A stretch of DNA of 51,406 nucleotides from a virus (IMGVR_UViG_3300012204_000001); one strand, 5' to 3'. Positions 2,052 to 38,227 are shown, counted from the first letter of the stretch. Numbers and translations: made by a program. Notes: generated by a model not told the origin, from the sequence alone.

Positions 2052-3144
2052 GAAACTACTTGGTGGTTGGGAAGTGAGTCCTACGCTATACATAGTTTTC
2101 GTTGGTCCTCCCGGCGGCCCTCGAAAGTCAACGTCTGCGAACTACAGTGAAGATCTGCTCAGTGAAATTCCAGTCGTAGAACGGGTCGCAACTTCAATCA
2201 CTAAAGAAAATTTGTTGAAGAAACTCTCAGAGATTGATGACTCCTCTCTGAGCATCTTTTCGAGCGAATTCGCGATGTTCATACAAAAAAGCGGATTCGA
2301 TATGTACGATGTACTCACGCATCTTTTCGATGCCAATAGGGATGTCTCGGTGGAAACCCTTGGCCGCGGGTTGGATTTTGCTGAGAAGCCCTGTGTTAAT
2401 CTTTTGGCCTGTACTACCCCTGACTGGATCTCGAATAATATGCCGGAGCATGTCATCGGGGGAGGATTTGCGTCTCGTGTTATCTTCGTGTTTGAGGAAG
2501 AAGTGCGTCGTCGCCAGCTCTATTATAACAAGCTGGGACTTGACTACGAGCGTATGAAGCAAATGCGTCTCGATCTGATTGACGATCTACTTCACCTAGC
2601 GAAGGATGTGGCAGGAGACTTCGAGATTGAATCTTCTGAAACAGAGGAATACATGGAGGCGTGGTATCGGGAAGTCGCTAGAAAGGCAGGTTCGATTGGT
2701 GAGAATTACAGAATGCGCGGATACATGGAGCGCAAACCAGCTCACGTCCACAAGCTCGCAATGCTACTCCATCTTGCTTACTCTGATGAGCTTGTGCTTA
2801 CTAAGGATGATTTCGATGGAGCTATCGCTATCTTGGACGATCTCGAACAGAAGATGCCACGGACGTTCTCGAATATCGGCAAGAACCCTTACGCCGTAGA
2901 CATGAACAGGATGTTGGAATGGATTGCGCGGCGGAGAGAAGTGACGAAGCGAGACCTCAAAGCAAACTTTTATCAATCAGCTGATCCAAGAAAGCTTGAA
3001 GAGTTGATTCAAGGGTTGATTGATATGGGGAAAATCAAGATGTACGTGGACGAAGAAGATCCCTACAACCAAGGGAAAACAAAACTTGTTTACTCCTTTC
3101 CAAAAGCTGCGTCTACTCAGTCTGGCGAATCCCGAAGCTCCTGA
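1906..3144 (+). CDS. P-loop NTPase, DUF3987/VirE-like putative replicative helicase
   Basis: 412 aa. Walker A-like VGPPGGPRKST, Walker B-like RVIFVFEEE. The N-terminal W..L....AP..YH.W pattern resembles phage DUF3987 proteins. Assigned from motif memory only. Confidence 0.65.
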   Translation: MSNQRKCDNWLLTFRDWSLPRSEAPESYHLWAGLFTMASVLKRRVRVPKKLLGGWEVSPTLYIVFVGPPGGPRKSTSANYSEDLLSEIPVVERVATSITKENLLKKLSEIDDSSLSIFSSEFAMFIQKSGFDMYDVLTHLFDANRDVSVETLGRGLDFAEKPCVNLLACTTPDWISNNMPEHVIGGGFASRVIFVFEEEVRRRQLYYNKLGLDYERMKQMRLDLIDDLLHLAKDVAGDFEIESSETEEYMEAWYREVARKAGSIGENYRMRGYMERKPAHVHKLAMLLHLAYSDELVLTKDDFDGAIAILDDLEQKMPRTFSNIGKNPYAVDMNRMLEWIARRREVTKRDLKANFYQSADPRKLEELIQGLIDMGKIKMYVDEEDPYNQGKTKLVYSFPKAASTQSGESRSS

Positions 3145-6100
3145 AAAAGGCACCGACAGGATCGCCACCGTTTATCATGATGTCAGCACCCTCATAAATA
3201 TCACGGATCAGATATGACCCAGGAACAGTCAGCATCGGAGCCTTCAAGAGCTGAGCTTTCGCTTCAGCCTGCTGCTTATCGGAGCCCGACAGATATTGTT
3301 GTCCCGTTCCTATTAGACCTGCTGCAGGACCTCCGCGAAAACCAAGCGCGCCGGGAACAAGATACCACGACGATAGATTTAGACCCAGCGCGGCTGAAGC
3401 AAGTGCTAGACTTGATTGGGTCATTGCAAATCTCGTCATCACGCCAGCTCTTTCTCGCGCAGTTCCTCTACTCGCAAGACGCATTAGCTGCGAGCGTGCC
3501 CATACAGGCCAGGACCCAAATTGTCCTAATATGCGTCCTGTATTTGTTCCCCAGCCCAGGGGATGATTTGCTAGGCCAAATACAGAAACTGTCTCGTATG
3601 ATGTGGCCTTTCCTAGGAAATCAGCCGCTTCCCTGAAACGCCCCTCCCTAACTAGCTGATCGAAGAACTGCTGAACTGGTGGATCGTAGGAGTTCATGAA
3701 CAGTTTATCGTAAGCCTTAACTTTCGCGGCGTCACCTGCTCCATACGATCCTCCCTCCATCTTACCAATCTCCTTCAAGGCACGAGTATACGTCTCTAAG
3801 TACACTGCGGAGTGTGCCCACTGGTAGATCGTGTGCTGTAGCCCCCACTTGATTCCTGCCTCACCCGTTTTCTGAATGAACTCACGAACTGGCTGCGTCC
3901 GTCCTGAAATCGAGTTAGCAAGACGTTCCTGTGGAGTTACGATGTTAATGGCTCCCATCGTTGGTATCTGACCTTCTCTCGTAAGCGCAGCACCTGTACT
4001 TTCTCCAGGCACAACTTCCTTGATGATCTTCGCAGCTTTCAGATCGTCCGGCGTTACTCTCGCCATTTGTGTGAGCATGGCTGCTGTCCGACGCTCACCG
4101 AACCGCGAGTAATACAAGGAAATAAGATTATGAAAATCTCTGATTCCTTGCATCGGACGGAAGCCAATGGTCGCAGATGACGTGAGAGACAAGAACGTGT
4201 TAACTAGATCTCTTCTCGTGTCCACAGAACTCTTGACCCCGAGCCGTTCGAGCATTCCATTGAGTGTCTTCTGCGCCCACTTGGATGTATCGTGTGGCAC
4301 TCCACGAAGCTGATCAATGTAATCATTGACGATGATCTTGCGAATCATCTCACGCTCAGGCAGGCGCGCAGTAGCTTCGTTTACATAATCGTATGCTTTC
4401 TCAAGTGCCTGTTTGGTGTACAGATTGTTATAGCCAGAATTCGTGTAGCGAACTGCTACATTGATCGGATCACGATCGAACTCGTCCATTTCTCCGGTTC
4501 GCAATAGCTCTGATGTGAAAACCGGCGCATTATCCCGACCTACAAAGATCACATCATCCTTGTAGATTCGGAGGTGTGGCATATAACCCTGAAGCTGTTG
4601 CTCCTCAGGAATGTTGAACTTCGGTGCAATTTGCTTATAGTATGACTTCAGCTCGTCGTACACCTTTCTCTGTTGAGGCGTGAACTTCTCGCGCTGCATG
4701 TACGCTTCAGGCTCTAGCGTTCCACCAGCAATCGCGTCCGCGAGTCTGACGATGCCATAGATAGAAAGCTCACCAGGCTTATTAATCGCTAAGACGCGAC
4801 CGAGAACACGAGCAGCTTCAAGATGATTCTCGTCCATGTTCAAGTTGACTTGCAGTCTCTTAACTGCTTCGTCAACTCGTGGACCAGTATCTCCCATCCG
4901 ACGCTCGAGATTCTTGAGACCGCGATAGTAAGCAAACGCTTTCTTCACGTCAATCTGATGATCAGCAAACCAACGTGCGCCAGCAATCTCTTTGTCTGTG
5001 AATCCACGCTTGAATAGTCCAGTTCCAGCCTTCACCATCTCTTCAGCTGATCGCGTTTCGAGAGCAGAAGTAATGGCATCGTACTGGTCAGGCTTCAATC
5101 CTTTTGCGAGCCGCGAAATCCCAGCGATGCGCCGCATATCCTCGTGCATGAAAGCATACTTGCGACGGAACGCTTCCTGTAGAGGATGCCAGACTTGCGA
5201 ATTGAACTGCGTACCTAGCTGAGAGTCAAGCGCGATCATCACCTCTCGCGGTTTAGTAACCAGTCTTCCCGGTAGAGTGGTATTGAACCAGTGACGAAAC
5301 TGCGCAAGTGGACCATCTTTCTGGTAATTGAAGGTCGAGGTGTGAGGACCATTGGGATCAGGCTGGGGAGCAATCAGTCCCTTAGCCACACCAGGAGGCA
5401 CACCGTTGTCACCGATCAAGTCAGTGCCCATCGCTTGATCAGCTGTGTTAACGAAATTCTTGGCTTCCTCCGAAGTTAGGAAGTGTCCGAGTTGCGTTCC
5501 AGTCTGCGCATCTCTGACAAAAATAGAGCCGTTCGCTCTCTCGACATACATACCGTTTGTGGTTGCCAGTTGAGAGAGTTCACCGGCGAGTTCTTTAGGA
5601 TAGCTGCGAGCCTCTGCAACCATGCCCTCGTAAGCAATACGTTCGTTCGGTGATAGTGACTGATTCCTAAGTTCTTCTCCGTAGCGATCACCGAGAAACT
5701 TGAAGAGTCCTGGGAGGTTCTCTGGCTGTTCATGTTTCGTGCTCGCATATTCCTCGACCAACTGTCGAAAAGTTCTGTTGACTGGACCATCAGCACCTTC
5801 AGGAGTTCGCAGACGAATGAACTTCCTGAAGTCCTCATACAGTCCTCTCTTAACATCTTCCTTCGTAATCTCAAAGGGATTCGCCATCACATCGAAGCCG
5901 CGACGAAGATGATCGAGTCCTACCTCGACTTCTGCGCCGTGTGCGTCCTTGATGATATGTCCTTCGAGATTACCCTTGGAGCTTAGAACCGGACGTTCGT
6001 ATGTATACTCGTTTCCGAGGAAATGGACTGGTTGTTCTGGTAGGAAGCCAGATACCTCAAAGAACGCCTTTGACTGTAGATCGGTGGGCGGATTCACCAT

Positions 6101-32135: not shown

Positions 32136-32211
32136 GTGTGCGGTCCTGTGGGACTGAGCCGAGTCTCGTTTAGCACGGGAACGGTCACAGGTTCAAATCC
32201 TGTCGCACACA
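32136..32211 (+). ncRNA. tRNA-shaped element A (non-canonical)
   Basis: Perfect 7-bp terminal stem GTGTGCG/CGCACAC, directly abutting the T-arm ACAGG-TTCAAAT-CCTGT. The interior does not give a standard D-arm plus anticodon arm. Hairpin GGGACT-GAGCCG-AGTCTC lies at 32150-32167. Confidence 0.5.
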
Positions 32212-32234
32212 TTGAAGTCTGGCTCGTTGGGAGG

Positions 32235-32435
32235 ATATCCCATCCATCCCATCCACGCACATGGATGGAATAGGGCTCCCTCCCAAGGGGTGGGTACCCC
32301 CCCCCATTGTTCTCAGTCTATCTATAAAAATAATATATATAGATAGAGAGACTGAGAATAGATAGGGGGGAGGGGGGACGGTCAGGAGGGGAAGGGGTCA
32401 GTCCATCCACATGGATGGATGCGATGGATGGGATA
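32235..32435. repeat. composite dyad-symmetric element of about 200 bp (origin, terminator or resolution-site candidate)
   Basis: Outer arms ATATCCCATCCATCCCATCC (32235-32254) and GGATGCGATGGATGGGATAT (32416-32435) match 19/20. Inner arms are TTCTCAGTCTATCTATA (32310-32326) and TATAGATAGAGAGACTGAGAA (32338-32358), around an AT-only centre. C8 and G6AG6 tracts flank the core. Confidence 0.8.
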
Positions 32436-32646
32436 TTCACGCGGGGAGATAGATGCTGAATCTGAGAATCCGAGTGTGGCGATGGGAGTTCGCGGTGACT
32501 CTCAAGCCCATCCGCTCGTTACATGAGTGGAGATCGGCAGACCGTGCAATTCGTGATGCGTGGGGCCATTAGCCTCAGATTGTAAGTAGGGTCCGCCGGT
32601 CAGGTGTGGTGTGAAAGCCACACTTGGCATTGCCGAAAGTTGGGGC

Positions 32647-32675
32647 TTGACAACGTGTCGTGACCGTGTTATATT
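32647..32675 (+). promoter_or_regulatory. sigma70-type promoter with extended -10
   Basis: GGGGCTTGACAA: TTGACA (32647-32652), 17-nt spacer ending in TGT, TATATT (32670-32675). Confidence 0.7.
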
Positions 32676-34524: not shown

Positions 34525-34553
34525 TTGACAAACGGCCCGCGATGTGTTATATT
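34525..34553 (+). promoter_or_regulatory. sigma70-type promoter with extended -10
   Basis: GAGGCTTGACAAAC: TTGACA (34525-34530), 17-nt spacer ending in TGT, TATATT (34548-34553). Confidence 0.75.
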
Positions 34554-34620: not shown

Positions 34621-35190
34621 ATGGCCGACGAGGGCAAAAAGCTCACGCTCTCGGAAGTGGAGGAGTTCGTTAATGATTTTGCGGTGAAATATGCGCAGGA
34701 TCATTACACGATGCCAAGGACAGCGTTCAGAATTTTCCTGTGGCCTAGCGATACGCTCGTGAAGATCACTCGCGAACCTACCGCCAGAATTATCATGGGG
34801 ATTCTGCCGCACCATCCTCGCTTCAACGAGACAATGCGGAGCGCAATCGACAAGGTGGCGGTCCACAAGCTGTACAGTGGTATGGCCGTCGAGAAATTGG
34901 CGCTTATCCTCGAAAGGGATACGCACCTCAATCGGTGGTTGAAGGAGAAGTACAATTTCGAGCCGGAGTTGATTCCTCACATGCTGAGCGACGAGGAGAT
35001 CACGGTTCGCTACATCGAGCGTGTCGAGGTCGTTCACAAGGCGACAGGGATGCGCGAGGTGGTCGAGACCGATGAAGGGCAGGCCAGGACCACATTCGCA
35101 GCGAGACATATCGCTCGGATGAGGCTCGCTCGGCGCGTGCATGAAGCACGGCTCGCTGAGTTGGTGAAAGATCAGCACGACGCAGCATGA
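34621..35190 (+). CDS. hypothetical early protein (189 aa)
   Basis: ATG 34621 preceded by GGAGGA. The track ORF start at 34525 is the TTG inside the promoter -35 box. Confidence 0.65.
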   Translation: MADEGKKLTLSEVEEFVNDFAVKYAQDHYTMPRTAFRIFLWPSDTLVKITREPTARIIMGILPHHPRFNETMRSAIDKVAVHKLYSGMAVEKLALILERDTHLNRWLKEKYNFEPELIPHMLSDEEITVRYIERVEVVHKATGMREVVETDEGQARTTFAARHIARMRLARRVHEARLAELVKDQHDAA

Positions 35191-35299
35191 AAGTAAGGCT
35201 AGGCTGAGTCAAAGCATCGGTAATGCTCGTGACGTTGAGTTGGTGCTTGGGTAAACACTTCCTGCGCTAACGAGAACCAGTCCTAGTCGAAAATGAAGT

Positions 35300-35390
35300 A
35301 TGGCGGGGTGGTTGACTGTTGGTATGTCACGACGGACTGTAAATCCGTTGCCTTCGGGCTTCGAGGGTTCGATTCCCTCCCCTTAGCCAT
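35300..35390 (+). tRNA. tRNA-Tyr(GUA)-like element B with non-canonical terminal helix
   Basis: D-arm TGAC-TGTTGGTAT-GTCA, anticodon arm ACGGA-CTGTAAA-TCCGT (GTA at 35339-35341), long variable arm GCC-TTCG-GGC, T-arm GAGGG-TTCGATT-CCCTC. The ends pair as ATGGC+GGG with CCC[TTA]GCCAT, which is a bulged helix rather than a 7-bp acceptor stem. Confidence 0.5.
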
Positions 35391-35435
35391 AAAGGTCGGC
35401 AGGCAGGGCTTTCGCAGAGTGTGACGACCTATCAC

Positions 35436-35530
35436 AGCACAGAGCCTTCCTCCGAGGGCATGGCAGCTAGGGACTGAGCGTGGCCATCGCGAGTCTCCCT
35501 GGATTGTGGGTTCGATTCCCACCTGTGCTT
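35436..35530 (+). ncRNA. tRNA-shaped element C (94 nt, non-canonical)
   Basis: Perfect 7-bp terminal stem AGCACAG/CTGTGCT and T-arm GTGGG-TTCGATT-CCCAC. The 63-nt interior contains GGGACTGAGC (35470-35479) and CGAGTCTC (35490-35497), as in element A. Confidence 0.5.
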
Positions 35531-35531
35531 T

Positions 35532-35750
35532 ATGTCCGCGATTTATGGACCCAACGCTCATCCGGGCCATCTATGCGCGAGAGTGGACAATGGATTCCCT
35601 TGCGAACGCAGGGTAGAGTTCATTCTCTATGATATGGATGGCAGCGGAGGAACATCGAGAACATGCCGCTATCACATGATGATGTTCGTTATCATCTGTG
35701 CATTCAGCAGTGGAGTTCTCCCGCTCTGGAGTGAGATTCGTGAACATTGA
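35532..35750 (+). CDS. hypothetical Cys/His-containing protein (72 aa)
   Basis: The ATG lies 2 nt after element C. No clear RBS. Coding status is uncertain. Confidence 0.35.
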   Translation: MSAIYGPNAHPGHLCARVDNGFPCERRVEFILYDMDGSGGTSRTCRYHMMMFVIICAFSSGVLPLWSEIREH

Positions 35751-35928
35751 GTTTCGCAAAGTGAAGCGAGTCGGCAATAACTGCGTGGCCGATATGTTCT
35801 TTGATGGCTACAAGGTTGCAGAGATTCACTGTATGCCAAGTGAGTTCACTATACTCACCACGTTGCTACATGATGGCAACATGGCAAACGGTGGATCGAG
35901 TGAACAGATAGTTGTCAGCGAGGCTTGA
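35740..35928 (+). CDS. hypothetical protein (62 aa from GTG 35740)
   Basis: GGAG 8-9 nt upstream of GTG 35740. The track ORF starts at GTG 35698. The stop TGA lies inside the next promoter's TTGACA. Confidence 0.4.
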   Translation: MNIEFRKVKRVGNNCVADMFFDGYKVAEIHCMPSEFTILTTLLHDGNMANGGSSEQIVVSEA

Positions 35929-35953
35929 CAAACGCGGTACAATGTGTTATACT
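35925..35953 (+). promoter_or_regulatory. sigma70-type promoter with extended -10
   Basis: GAGGCTTGACAAAC: TTGACA (35925-35930), 17-nt spacer ending in TGT, TATACT (35948-35953). Confidence 0.75.
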
Positions 35954-35986: not shown

Positions 35987-38227
35987 GTGACCGAAAGTAG
36001 CAGGGAACCGTCCGATGCTCAACTCGACAGCGAGCTAGAAGCTGCTGATCTTGAGCATGAGCTTGAGGCGATTCGTACTCGGGAAGCCGAGTTGAATCGT
36101 CAGAAGCTCGAAATCATGGACAGACAACGAGTAGCATTGCGTCGCGCTCATGAGGAGAAGCTGCGCCGCGAACGCGAGGCTGAGCAGGAGCGGATACGGA
36201 AGGAGCAGGAACAAGAAATCGAGATCCGTGTATGTGACTTCAACGGATTCTTCGTGAACGTGAAGGTCCTTCCAGATATTCGCTCGGACATCCTCAATCT
36301 CCTCAGGAACATCTACGGTCGGCAGTTCGATGCGTTCTCTGCAGTTAACCGCATCCCTGCTGAATCGTGGGTGAAGTTCAAGGAAGATGTGACGACCTTG
36401 CCTCACGTGAAGGTCACGCATCTTCTTGGCATCGAGGGCAAGATCAAGAAGTACCTCACGATGCCAGACTTCAGCATTTCGATTGACAGCAAACAGCTAA
36501 AGGTCGAGACGCACTCGCAGGCGCCCACCAGATATATCGCTGACATTCCTGGATCTGAGTTCTTCCGCGACAAAGGCTATTGGACAGCGCCGCTCACTGA
36601 GGGCTGGCGTCTATTCCAGAAGCTAGAGCTTTACGCAGCGGAGATTCCGGAGGATAGACAACGAGGCGTGATCTGGGCGCCTGACGCACTGAGACTAGTA
36701 GAAGCAGAAGTTGAGCGTCGCACGAAGCTTGACACGGTGGCGCTCCAACAGGACTCAACATTCGATGTCAAGTTCGAGAATGGATTTGTACTACGGCCAT
36801 TTCAGAGAGTTGGAATCGAGTTCATCGACCTCTCCAAAGGTCGTGCGCTTGTGGCTGATCAGATGGGACTCGGCAAGACTTGGGAATCTATTGGTTGGAT
36901 TATCCTCAGAAATCTCCGATCAGTCATTGTCTGCCCTGCCCATCTCAAGGCTAATTGGGCGCGTGAGATCCACCAACTCACCGGCCAGTTTCCCGCGATA
37001 CTCTCTGGTCGCGAACCTTCCAAGTACGATGTAGAGCTGCTCCTAATCACCAAACCACAGTTCACGATCATCAACTACGATATTCTCGCAGCTAAGACAA
37101 AGGTGGACGAGCAAAGGGTCGTCGATGAGAAAGGCGATATTCACGTCACGCCACCCAAGGAGAGATTCCTCTGGGCTGAGCTGATCATGATGTCGAAGCC
37201 TGACGTGATCGTAGTTGACGAGGCGCACTACACCAAGAACACGGACAGCAATCGGTCCAAAGCTACTCGAATGCTGCAAGTCGAGCACCGCATCGCCATG
37301 ACTGGAACACCAGTCTTGAATCGTCCCGGAGAATATTGGGCGATTCTCAACTGGCTACGTCCAGAGCTGTTCCCTTCCGAAGACAAATTCATCTGGCAAT
37401 ACACGAACAACGGACGCACGGCTCGGAATGTAGAAGAGTTGCGAGATCTCCTCAAGCCTATCATGATTCGTCGGCTGAAGAAGGATGTCGTCTCGGAATT
37501 GCCTCCGATCAATCGCATCACAGAGCTGCATGAACTCTCCGAAGATGCAGTCGTTGTCTACAAGAAAGTTCTCGCGGGTGTGTACAAGGCGATTGACGAC
37601 GCTGGTAATCAAATTGAGCGGAACGTCGCCAACATCCTAGTTGAGATCGGAAAGCTGAAAGAGGTCTGTGCTCATGACAAGGTTGACCGAGTTGCGGACC
37701 TGGCAACGGAACTGTTTGACACGGAGCAGGATGCGGCGGACGCGAAGCTTGGGAACAAGAAGGTCCTCATCTTCTCGCAATACAAAGACGTTGTTCGTAA
37801 GGTGGCTGCAAGACTTGGACGAGAAGCTATCTACTGGACAGGTGACACAGATTTCGCAGAGCGCACTCGTCTTGAAAACGAATTCCAGACTAATCCGGAT
37901 GTGCATTTCCTGGTGGTAAGCCTGATGACAGGCCAGACAGGACTAAACCTCACCGCTGCCGGACACGTCATCTTCGCAGACCTCTACTGGACACCGGCTG
38001 CACACGCACAGGCAGAGGAGCGCGCATACGGACGACTCTCGAACATGCACGGTTGCGACAGTTACTATGTCGTAGCCGAGCGTACAATCGAAGAGTGGAT
38101 TCAGGAGATGCTCGCTGCCAAGCTCGAAACGATCAACGCAGTCGTGGAAGGAATCGACAGCGAGCGTGATCCGAGCATCGGAATGGCAATCATCCAGAAG
38201 TTGAAACAGCTGAGGGGGCAGCTATGA
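35987..38227 (+). CDS. SNF2 family helicase with N-terminal Glu/Arg-rich coiled coil
   Basis: 746 aa. Motif I ADQMGLGKT, motif II VVDEAHYTKN, motif III MTGTPVLN, then LIFSQYKDV, TGQTGLNLT and QAEERAYGR. Confidence 0.9.
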   Translation: MTESSREPSDAQLDSELEAADLEHELEAIRTREAELNRQKLEIMDRQRVALRRAHEEKLRREREAEQERIRKEQEQEIEIRVCDFNGFFVNVKVLPDIRSDILNLLRNIYGRQFDAFSAVNRIPAESWVKFKEDVTTLPHVKVTHLLGIEGKIKKYLTMPDFSISIDSKQLKVETHSQAPTRYIADIPGSEFFRDKGYWTAPLTEGWRLFQKLELYAAEIPEDRQRGVIWAPDALRLVEAEVERRTKLDTVALQQDSTFDVKFENGFVLRPFQRVGIEFIDLSKGRALVADQMGLGKTWESIGWIILRNLRSVIVCPAHLKANWAREIHQLTGQFPAILSGREPSKYDVELLLITKPQFTIINYDILAAKTKVDEQRVVDEKGDIHVTPPKERFLWAELIMMSKPDVIVVDEAHYTKNTDSNRSKATRMLQVEHRIAMTGTPVLNRPGEYWAILNWLRPELFPSEDKFIWQYTNNGRTARNVEELRDLLKPIMIRRLKKDVVSELPPINRITELHELSEDAVVVYKKVLAGVYKAIDDAGNQIERNVANILVEIGKLKEVCAHDKVDRVADLATELFDTEQDAADAKLGNKKVLIFSQYKDVVRKVAARLGREAIYWTGDTDFAERTRLENEFQTNPDVHFLVVSLMTGQTGLNLTAAGHVIFADLYWTPAAHAQAEERAYGRLSNMHGCDSYYVVAERTIEEWIQEMLAAKLETINAVVEGIDSERDPSIGMAIIQKLKQLRGQL

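Follow-up and report, generated by a model that had tools for sequence, protein, structure and literature searches.

This work describes element C, a transfer RNA (tRNA)-shaped element of 95 nucleotides (nt), or 94 nt if the discriminator base is excluded, at positions 35436-35530 on the plus strand of the viral sequence IMGVR_UViG_3300012204_000001. That whole stretch of DNA, 51,406 nt in length, is referred to here as the window. Element C belongs to a real and conserved family of covarying, tRNA-shaped RNAs that standard tools miss; its place is among the phage tRNA-like small RNAs, a known class, and the family itself is new. The top half of a tRNA is kept (the acceptor stem, the T stem and its canonical T loop, and a GG resembling that of a D loop), with a small hairpin and a long, fairly rigid helix replacing the D stem and the anticodon arm. 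We favor the reading, at a probability of about 0.6, that element C is the gene for a stable small RNA that mimics a tRNA, does not decode, and acts through its apical loop.

Written as RNA, element C runs AGCACAG-A-GCCUUCCUCCGAGGGC-AUGGCAG-CUAGGGACUGAGCGUGGCCAUCGCGAGUCUCCCUGG-AUU-GUGGGUUCGAUUCCCAC-CUGUGCU-U, and its minimum free energy (MFE) fold consists of an acceptor stem, a hairpin of 6 base pairs (bp), a long hairpin, and a T arm. The parts are as follows.

35436-35442, plus strand: 5' strand of the acceptor stem, AGCACAG, forming 7 of 7 pairs with CTGTGCT (35523-35529), a perfect helix.
35443, plus strand: single-stranded A, the equivalent of tRNA position 8.
35444-35459, plus strand: hairpin 1, GCCUUC-CUCC-GAGGGC, found in both the MFE and centroid folds and sitting where a D arm would start.
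35460-35466, plus strand: D-loop-like linker, AUGGCAG, with the invariant GG at 35462-35463.
35467-35502, plus strand: hairpin 2, the long hairpin that replaces the anticodon arm, its 12 pairs interrupted by an internal loop and a 2-nt bulge.
35481-35487, plus strand: apical loop of hairpin 2, UGGCCAU, which carries the hallmark GGCC and is the core of a previously proposed 10-nt insertion (see below).
35503-35505, plus strand: joint, AUU, far shorter than a tRNA variable region.
35506-35522, plus strand: T arm, GUGGG-UUCGAUU-CCCAC, read from the sequence.
35523-35530, plus strand: 3' strand of the acceptor stem, CUGUGCU, and discriminator U; CCA is not encoded.

The original prediction had reported the perfect terminal helix and the consensus T arm, both of which read the same here; the discriminator T is at 35530. 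It could not fit the 63-nt interior between terminal helix and T arm to a cloverleaf, and none was found: two hairpins flank an open GG linker. The sequence blocks that it had picked out of this interior, GGGACTGAGC (35470-35479), GTGGCCATCG (35480-35489), and CGAGTCTC (35490-35497), lie exactly where first noted. By analogy with G18 and G19 of tRNA, the linker GG could contact the T loop and form an elbow.

Neither tRNA nor RNA-family tools call element C. ARAGORN did not report it at default or intron settings, and its transfer-messenger RNA (tmRNA) mode found nothing at this position. The only two genes that ARAGORN placed in the window were tRNA-Leu(UAG), which corresponds to a second element, element A (32136-32211), and tRNA-Tyr(GUA) (35304-35389); with Rfam at gathering thresholds, tRNA-Tyr was the sole match. 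No Rfam family matched element C even at an E value of ≤10, including RF00005, RF01852, the tmRNA families, RF01695, and RF02553. For the homologues introduced below, the Rfam tRNA models RF00005 and RF01852 gave nothing at an E value of ≤1 in seven loci with six homologues, none of the homologues was called a tRNA by ARAGORN, and relaxed ARAGORN settings (-i, -ps80) returned a different and mutually inconsistent tRNA identity for each member. An intron-containing or low-scoring tRNA was rejected on these inconsistent identities, and a tmRNA, YrlA, C4, or other Rfam family for want of any match. With ARAGORN and Rfam both silent, the ordinary class II tRNA that the original prediction had itself named as the competing annotation was not called. 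In all 12 family members, the D arm (a 3- to 4-bp stem around the G18/G19 loop) is absent, the GG lying in an open linker between two complete hairpins. The canonical anticodon arm is absent as well: the helix at its place has 9 to 17 pairs and a loop of 4 to 14 nt, and position 33 would be a G in the window.

A near-identity search of GenBank phages with element C gave only generic T-arm matches, and no cultured relative of the SNF2 helicase encoded nearby was found at >30% identity. Because no close GenBank phage was available, this helicase and gpX (the name given here to the gene directly upstream of the RNA genes) were used to retrieve contigs of related phages in IMG/VR and in assemblies from Logan, ENA, and JGI, and sequence-pattern scans were added. 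The fetched loci were searched with a descriptor that required a perfect acceptor stem of 7 bp, a T stem of 5 bp, and a 7-mer resembling a T loop. This search and the pattern scans yielded 11 further distinct elements, so that the family comprises 12 members with element C of the window as the seed. By contig and position, these C-type elements are the following.

L155, 3228-3325
L232, 3442-3545
L235, 5404-5509
L238, 5430-5525
L239, 1186-1287
L007, 5055-5153
L240, 5333-5426
L008, 4730-4819
L159, 2996-3088
L158, 814-888
L022, 9927-10026

Ten C-type elements lie in phages of the same gene order and two in more distant relatives; flanking proteins among the member phages are 42 to 72% identical. 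L022 comes from an unrelated phage of ∼45% GC content with a Sak4-like gene, where the element lies beside a DUF4031-like gene (phrog_4887) and tRNA-Leu(UAA), and both the SNF2 helicase and gpX are missing near it. A covariance model built from the window sequence alone retrieved 9 of the 11 other members at 23 to 48 bits; ordinary tRNAs in the same loci scored ≤22.9 bits with this model, below all nine. L158 and L159 fell under its cutoff of an E value of ≤1 and were kept as members on the basis of architecture and genomic position. Apart from chance matches, pattern scans covering one genome per bacterial species and the JGI metagenomes recovered nothing beyond the contigs from which L008 and L022 come. 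By that pattern, the family is therefore rare, and no copy on a host chromosome turned up. The motif shared by elements A and C, GGGACTGAGC-N0-30-CGAGTCTC, was tried as a family signature and discarded, as a scan of viral contigs gave chance matches with no tRNA-like frame. A possible C-family relative with no hairpin 1 is present in L260 (10432-10506) and, with the same sequence, in L261: GGAGG/CCUCC forms its acceptor core, its linker is UUUGGAAAA, its hairpin has the loop AUUUCGGCCAUCUU, and its T arm is of the GGUUCGAUUCC type. The window-only model gives it only 18.4 bits.

All 12 members adopted the same fold when the acceptor and T arms were the sole constraints. Members are 75 to 106 nt long, with acceptor strands enclosing 60 to 91 nt. 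The 7-bp acceptor stem is followed by A, AG, or AA in 10 members and by no such joint in L158 and L159. Hairpin 1, of 4 to 7 bp, is present in 12/12 members with unrelated sequences, about half of the loops reading CUCC, CCUCC, or CCCUCC. The D-loop-like linker that comes next, of the general form A-N-GG-N-A, varies around a GG that is invariant in 12/12 (AUGGCAG, GAUAGGAU, AUGGA, GUAACGGAU, AACGGAU, CUUGGA, ACUUGGA, AUGGG, AUGGGA, CAUGGG, CAAUUGGA, and AAUAGGU). Hairpin 2, likewise present in every member, has a stem sequence that differs in each relative, and GGCC lies in or at its apex in 10 of the 12: the apex is CGGCCAUC in L007, L008, L022, L232, and L235, UGGCCAUC in the window, AGGCCAUC in L239, and UCGGCC in L155, L238, and L240. 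The apical loops hold no constant triplet in an anticodon context. A joint of 0 to 3 nt precedes the T arm, GGUUCGAUUCC, in which GGUUC-A-UCC is invariant across the family. Six members have A as the discriminator, five have U, and one has G; CCA is never encoded. Pair 3:70 is C-G in nine, G-C in two, and U-A in one.

The 10-nt GTGGCCATCG is the most conserved interior feature of the C family, its hallmark loop. The original prediction had described it as a 10-nt insertion into a motif of element A; its position in the sequence stands, and the framing does not, GGCC being present in 10/12 C-type apices within flanking stems that differ. Hairpin 2 approximates the stacked D and anticodon stems of a tRNA in length, with the GGCC loop roughly at the place of the anticodon. 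A pseudoknot between the GG linker and the hairpin 2 loop was considered and dropped, the matches of 2 to 6 bp found by eye being about what chance would give.

Taken alone, the fold of element C is weakly better than that of shuffled sequences (z = -1.89, 6/200), and two relatives fold far better than shuffles (z = -4.25 for L008 and -3.93 for L022). For comparison across the family, MAFFT RNA alignments clashed with the structure and were replaced by a hand alignment, built module by module with N padding, that MAFFT left unchanged. In the acceptor stem, 84/84 cells are paired, with two-sided changes at 7/7 positions and up to four pair types at each. The T stem has 57 of 60 cells paired, and 3 of its 5 pairs covary. 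These two stems are fair, independent tests because they have a fixed register with the invariant T loop. Over the whole structure, 99.2% of cells are paired versus 57.5 ± 2.1% in shuffles, and the covariation score of 0.931 (versus 0.207) was reached by 0 of 500 shuffles; sliding the partners by 1 to 3 columns lowers pairing to 34 to 46%. The presence of two hairpins of unrelated sequence at the same places in every member, together with the z scores of L008 and L022, argues for selected RNA structure and against a decaying pseudogene. The homologues with compensatory changes on which the original prediction had staked its case thus exist (84/84 in the acceptor stem), in a family that is missing from Rfam. 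Conserved structure, family membership, missing tRNA features, and operon context are all directly supported here.

RNase P, RNase Z, and CCA-adding and T-loop-modifying enzymes recognize the top half of tRNA. The conserved parts of the C-type elements are those that these enzymes read, and we infer from this that the RNA is excised and stabilized; the apical loop would presumably be its active part. In the proposed mechanism, transcription would start at the early promoter at 34525 and be polycistronic with gpX, tRNA-Tyr, and two small open reading frames (ORFs). Host enzymes would then release the element, RNase P first making the 5' end and RNase Z or exonucleases, with the CCA-adding enzyme, then the 3' end, an excision that would also split the operon transcript. 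The excised RNA would act in trans through its apical loop, either by base pairing or by way of a protein that recognizes the tRNA shape. Known RNase P substrates include phage M3 RNA, the C4 antisense RNA of P1/P7, and tRNA-like molecules of T-even phages (PMC11143913). Element C itself is situated within an early operon, next to real tRNA genes and after a strong conserved promoter.

Several points weigh against this reading. The 100% pairing of hairpins 1 and 2 is partly built in, their columns having been set by each sequence's own predicted fold. The members are kin, with 10 distinct acceptor sequences, so independent events are fewer than cells. L158 and L159 lack the GGCC loop, and no loop partner valid across the whole family was found. 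Finally, the closely related L006 carries a tRNA-Tyr-like gene at the corresponding place, and its 7.6 kb hold no C element, so the element is dispensable or replaceable. A bolder version of the tRNA-mimic reading is a new class of phage riboregulator on a tRNA chassis, in which host enzymes excise the RNA and a rigid helix holds the GGCC loop for a kissing dimer or for an RNA target, for instance the AUG-GCC start or the leader of the operon's first gene as in L007 and L008; we regard this version as conceivable, on the doubtful side.

The original prediction paired element C with a second element of the window.

32136-32211, plus strand: element A, read by ARAGORN as a poor Leu(UAG) cloverleaf with a mismatched D stem and unmatched by the Rfam tRNA model.

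Element A is marginally tRNA-like. The 18-mer GGGACTGAGCCGAGTCTC occurs contiguously once in the window, at 32150-32167 inside element A, which bears out the statement that the two blocks separated in element C are contiguous in A. The description of A and C as two paralogous, noncanonical tRNA-like RNAs held in part: C is noncanonical and its family has no Rfam entry, and A falls in another group, scoring 13.5 bits with the C model with filters off, the level of ordinary tRNAs. Relatives of A were found in L232 (385-446) and L235 (1254-1313 and 2622-2711). These A-type elements are 60 to 90 nt long and have a 7-bp acceptor stem abutting a GUCC-N3-4-GGAC hairpin, then a UGAG(C) linker, a variable hairpin, a UUCAAAU T loop, and discriminator A. 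This conserved fold is also the MFE fold of element A, and in it GGGAC-UGAGC-CGAGUCUC runs from the 3' strand of hairpin 1 through the linker into the 5' strand of hairpin 2. The hairpin GGGACU/AGUCUC, put forward earlier as a single A motif, is not conserved in A's relatives, and its string spans three elements. A and C are thus two different tRNA-like designs in one phage.

Among the C-type members, the exact GGGACTGAGC occurs in this window only, and other members have different 5' stem strands; L232 and L235 do share the 3' block GAGUCUC with the window. The 18 nt common to A and C are too long for chance, a 10-mer plus an adjacent 8-mer in two 90-nt sequences having an estimated probability of ∼1e-6. 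Because the sharing is specific to this genome, it points to local exchange or convergence and does not look family defining. A pattern scan for GACTGAG upstream of AGGTTCAAATCCT gave 12 loci. One of these, L243 (4292-4379), scores 53.5 bits in Rfam as a true class II tRNA, and its CUGAGGU resembles a Leu(GAG) anticodon loop, a motif that suggests that A-type elements may descend from tRNA-Leu(GAG). A further A-type variant occupies the same genomic position in L007 (1388-1455) and L240 (1362-1427); in L007, its 5' half overlaps a perfect TTGACA-17-TATTAT promoter.

One rival explanation is an antisense riboregulator of the element's own operon, on the model of the C4 RNA of P1/P7: the hairpin 2 loop would pair with the gpX start (AUG GCC G) or leader, and the CCUCC-like hairpin 1 loop with the gpX Shine-Dalgarno sequence. 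The gpX leader of L007 and L008, ∼0.9 to 1 kb upstream on the same strand, contains AGGAUGGCCGUGAA, with which the loop is complementary over its full length of 12 and 14 nt (shuffled-loop P = 0.0085 and 0.003, respectively), and in the fold of this leader CCCCUCCC sequesters the gpX Shine-Dalgarno sequence. gpX begins AUGGCCGA in the window, L155, L232, L235, L238, and L006, and several hairpin 1 loops read CCUCC, CCCUCC, or CCACCUC. However, the window and six other members match by 6 to 8 nt only, which a shuffled loop equals in 45 to 80% of trials, and the gpX start is inconsistent as the best RNAduplex target (ranks 2/13, 8/18, 6/16, 1/19, 1/4, and 12/16). L006 has the leader without a C element, L022 has the same loop without gpX, and hairpin 1 of L008 has no anti-Shine-Dalgarno sequence; L007 and L008, being homologous, count as one event. 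Given L006, L022, and the failed rank and shuffle tests outside L007 and L008, antisense control is a lead for one sublineage only, and as an account of the family we consider it unlikely. GGCCATC occurs 16 times on the two strands of the window versus 6.45 ± 2.96 expected (a count reached by only 1 of 100 shuffles), which is probably a codon effect (GCC AUC, AUG GCC); GATGGCC stands at a plausible gene start after a Shine-Dalgarno-like sequence only at 34621 and 42341.

As a purely cis-acting processing signal ("tRNA punctuation"), element C would let RNase P and RNase Z split gpX from the downstream ORFs, the RNA itself having no role. mascRNA at the MALAT1 3' end is a known tRNA-like processing signal, element C does lie between protein-coding genes of one transcription unit, and U73-U-AUG occurs in the window and in L022, where the ATG is a true start. 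We nevertheless find this quite unlikely: a start codon abutting the 3' end is absent in the other members, and punctuation needs only the acceptor stem, T arm, and elbow, which leaves conservation of the GGCC loop and long helix across two unrelated lineages unexplained. It is very unlikely that element C is an aberrant decoding tRNA with an extended anticodon stem and no D stem. Its acceptor stem, T arm, and elbow-type GG are tRNA-like, it lies in a tRNA island, and the 7-nt loop UGGCCAU of the window would put GCC at positions 34 to 36 and A at 37, with a discriminator U73 as in tRNA-Gly; but the window has G33 in place of U33, the triplet of L155 would be CGG, preceded by U33, a 7-nt loop is missing from other members (range, 4 to 14 nt), the "anticodon" helix is two to three times too long, ARAGORN identities are inconsistent, and the Rfam tRNA model is silent. 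A functionless, decaying tRNA pseudogene or recombination relic would fit the variable content of the island, the absence of the element from L006, the 18 nt in common with element A (which suggest local exchange), and the possible derivation of some A-type relatives from tRNA-Leu(GAG) (L243, 4292-4379). Decay would give mismatches, whereas 7/7 acceptor pairs are kept through two-sided changes in 12 members whose flanking proteins are 42 to 72% identical, and the same architecture and loop recur in the unrelated phage L022; we hold this reading to be just as improbable as a decoding tRNA. Least probable of all is a site acting as DNA or in transcription, namely an intrinsic terminator or a phage attachment site (attP) that includes a piece of a host tRNA gene. 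Copies of tRNA gene 3' ends are frequent in phage attP sites, and the T arm followed by CTGTGCTTTA was flagged as terminator-like. Against attP, no integrase was found among the ORFs scanned and the genome looks lytic, encoding a DNA polymerase A, SNF2 helicase, and DUF3987 protein of its own, both acceptor strands covary, which an attP does not require, and no host copy was found in a scan of one genome per bacterial species.

The tRNA-mimic reading also draws on the position of element C in its operon, for which two further features are relevant.

34525-34553, plus strand: likely promoter of the unit carrying element C, TTGACA-17-TATATT with an upstream TG, 11 of 12 consensus matches.
35304-35389, plus strand: tRNA-Tyr(GUA), class II, called by ARAGORN and by the Rfam tRNA model (29.8 bits versus a gathering threshold of 29), 46 nt before element C.

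The promoter is one of three near-identical strong sigma-70-type promoters in the window (TTGACA-17-TATAYT with an upstream TG; 32647-32675, 34525-34553, and 35925-35953), each at the head of an early unit. Its sequence is conserved upstream of gpX in relatives, and the promoter sequence upstream of gpX and the SNF2 helicase gene is conserved in all relatives. The unit that starts at 34525 comprises gpX (34621-35190; 34621 is its true start), tRNA-Tyr, element C, a small ORF at 35532-35750, and a 76-codon ORF; between promoter and element C, there is no terminator-like site except the T arm of element C itself. The promoter at 35925 drives the SNF2 helicase gene (35987-38227). A minus-strand ORF over both RNA genes (35283-35570) is most likely spurious. 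In the window (35530-35534) and in L022 (10026-10030), an ATG lies 1 nt past the discriminator (U-U-AUG-UC), leaving no room for a Shine-Dalgarno sequence. In L022, this ATG is the true start of the DUF4031-like protein, whose residue 1 falls on position 1 of phrog_4887 in a profile alignment. Cleavage at the tRNA-like 3' end would yield an almost leaderless mRNA in both.

gpX matched no Pfam or PHROG family and no PDB sequence at an E value of <0.06; its AlphaFold model has a predicted local distance difference test (pLDDT) score of 68 and no Foldseek match at an E value of <1. A hairpin of ∼100 nt occupies the 5' leader of gpX in L006 (1-95), L007 (4036-4135), and L008 (3793-3895) and lies upstream of gpX in L237 and L240, and it is not present in the window or L155. 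In it, CCCCUCCC pairs with the ribosome-binding site GGGAGGG, and the apex holds up to three copies of (A/G)UGGCCG(A/U)RAAC followed by CUCAGAUA. This leader hairpin might serve as a translational operator, or it might be a short upstream ORF.

The island that separates gpX from the helicase gene varies among relatives, holding the C element, tRNA-Tyr (also within the islands of L008 and L237), a further structured noncoding stretch, and small membrane-protein genes. The tRNA-Tyr of the window has a 2-nt irregularity in its 3' acceptor strand (CCCCUuaGCCA), and the L006 copy (896-981) has a poorly paired acceptor stem. The conserved noncoding stretch lies directly downstream of the C element in L008 (4820-5010), L007 (5155-5262), and L155 (3328-3448) and is also found in L006 (985-1100); it is closed by a terminal helix (e.g., GACCGUC...GGCGGUC), holds ACAUAUCGGGCAG, is unmatched in Rfam, and is not in the window. 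In L159, a second tRNA-like element (3090-3166) stands in tandem after the first, with a UAUAGCGUC/GACGCUAUA helix, a long hairpin with a UAUU loop, and a weak T stem.

Elsewhere, the window genome carries DNA polymerase A, the SNF2 helicase, a DUF3987 protein, a PD-(D/E)XK nuclease, and a methylase. Positions 32215-32445 (also L007, 1480-1640) form a large inverted repeat with an AT-only center, TATAAAAATAATATATATAGA, and flanking runs of G/C. Copies of the palindrome CCATCCACATGGATGG lie on both sides of it, between divergent late and early gene blocks, and the region looks like an origin or operator; its Rfam matches are spurious microRNA hairpin models only. A pattern scan also brought up unrelated viral contigs, L244 (3546-3624) and L242 (4762-4831). 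In those contigs, there is a type II hammerhead ribozyme match above threshold (39.4 versus 37 bits) and a partial YrlA-like match below threshold (35 bits), the latter in a phage array of ∼20 tRNA genes.

Searching phage genomes for tRNAs is routine, yet the C family is invisible to standard tools and absent from Rfam, a warning for annotation that tRNA islands can conceal non-tRNA genes. In these elements, phages keep the enzyme-recognized top half of a tRNA and swap the decoding half for another module. Should the bolder riboregulator version be true, some phages, taking the A-type elements into account, would hold a whole repertoire of "anticodon-less tRNAs." Should processing and a trans-acting role both hold, the family would stand as a new one beside C4, T4 species 1 and 2, and M3, element C would offer a natural scaffold for stable small RNAs, and its study would give a handle on early-operon control in an uncultivated phage lineage.

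Of the known systems, canonical tRNA (RF00005) shares with the C-type elements the 7-bp acceptor stem, the 5-bp T stem with the GGUUCGAUUCC T loop, a possible elbow GG, a single discriminator base, unencoded CCA, and a neighborhood of tRNA genes. Unlike a tRNA, a C-type element has an unenclosed GG, a joint of 0 to 3 nt in place of the variable region, and no 5-bp anticodon stem, 7-nt loop, U33, or purine 37, and ARAGORN and Rfam are silent. The tRNA-like domain of tmRNA (RF00023) is similar in its top half, its unenclosed D-loop analogue, and its long helix at the place of the anticodon arm. It differs in that C-type elements have C-G at 3:70 in 9/12 members, not the G-U needed for alanine charging, carry the extra hairpin 1, and at 75 to 106 nt have no messenger part, tag frame, or pseudoknots. 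YrlA (RF02553) is a noncoding RNA with a tRNA-mimicking module, found in phages among others; its ends form a Ro-binding stem and its tRNA-like part is distal, whereas C-type ends form the acceptor stem, and its Rfam model does not match. In mascRNA/MALAT1, a tRNA-like fold in a longer transcript recruits RNase P and RNase Z, in a eukaryotic setting and with a cloverleaf whose anticodon arm is poorly conserved; the C-type elements, in contrast, conserve a specific apical loop.

Among phage RNAs, the T4 species 1 and 2 RNAs (rnaC and rnaD) and phi80 M3 RNA are phage-encoded, tRNA-like, and stable. Species 1 and 2 are encoded within or next to the tRNA cluster and processed by tRNA enzymes, and they are not known to have a function. 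The nearest phage records share only a generic T arm with element C. C4 antisense RNA of P1/P7 (RF01695) has a different architecture and no Rfam match here, and L007 and L008 alone, without the window, show significant complementarity to a target. It is nonetheless a small phage RNA with tRNA-like features that is cut by RNase P from an operon transcript and whose loops pair with a target in the same operon, which makes it the closest analogy for how C-type RNAs might act.

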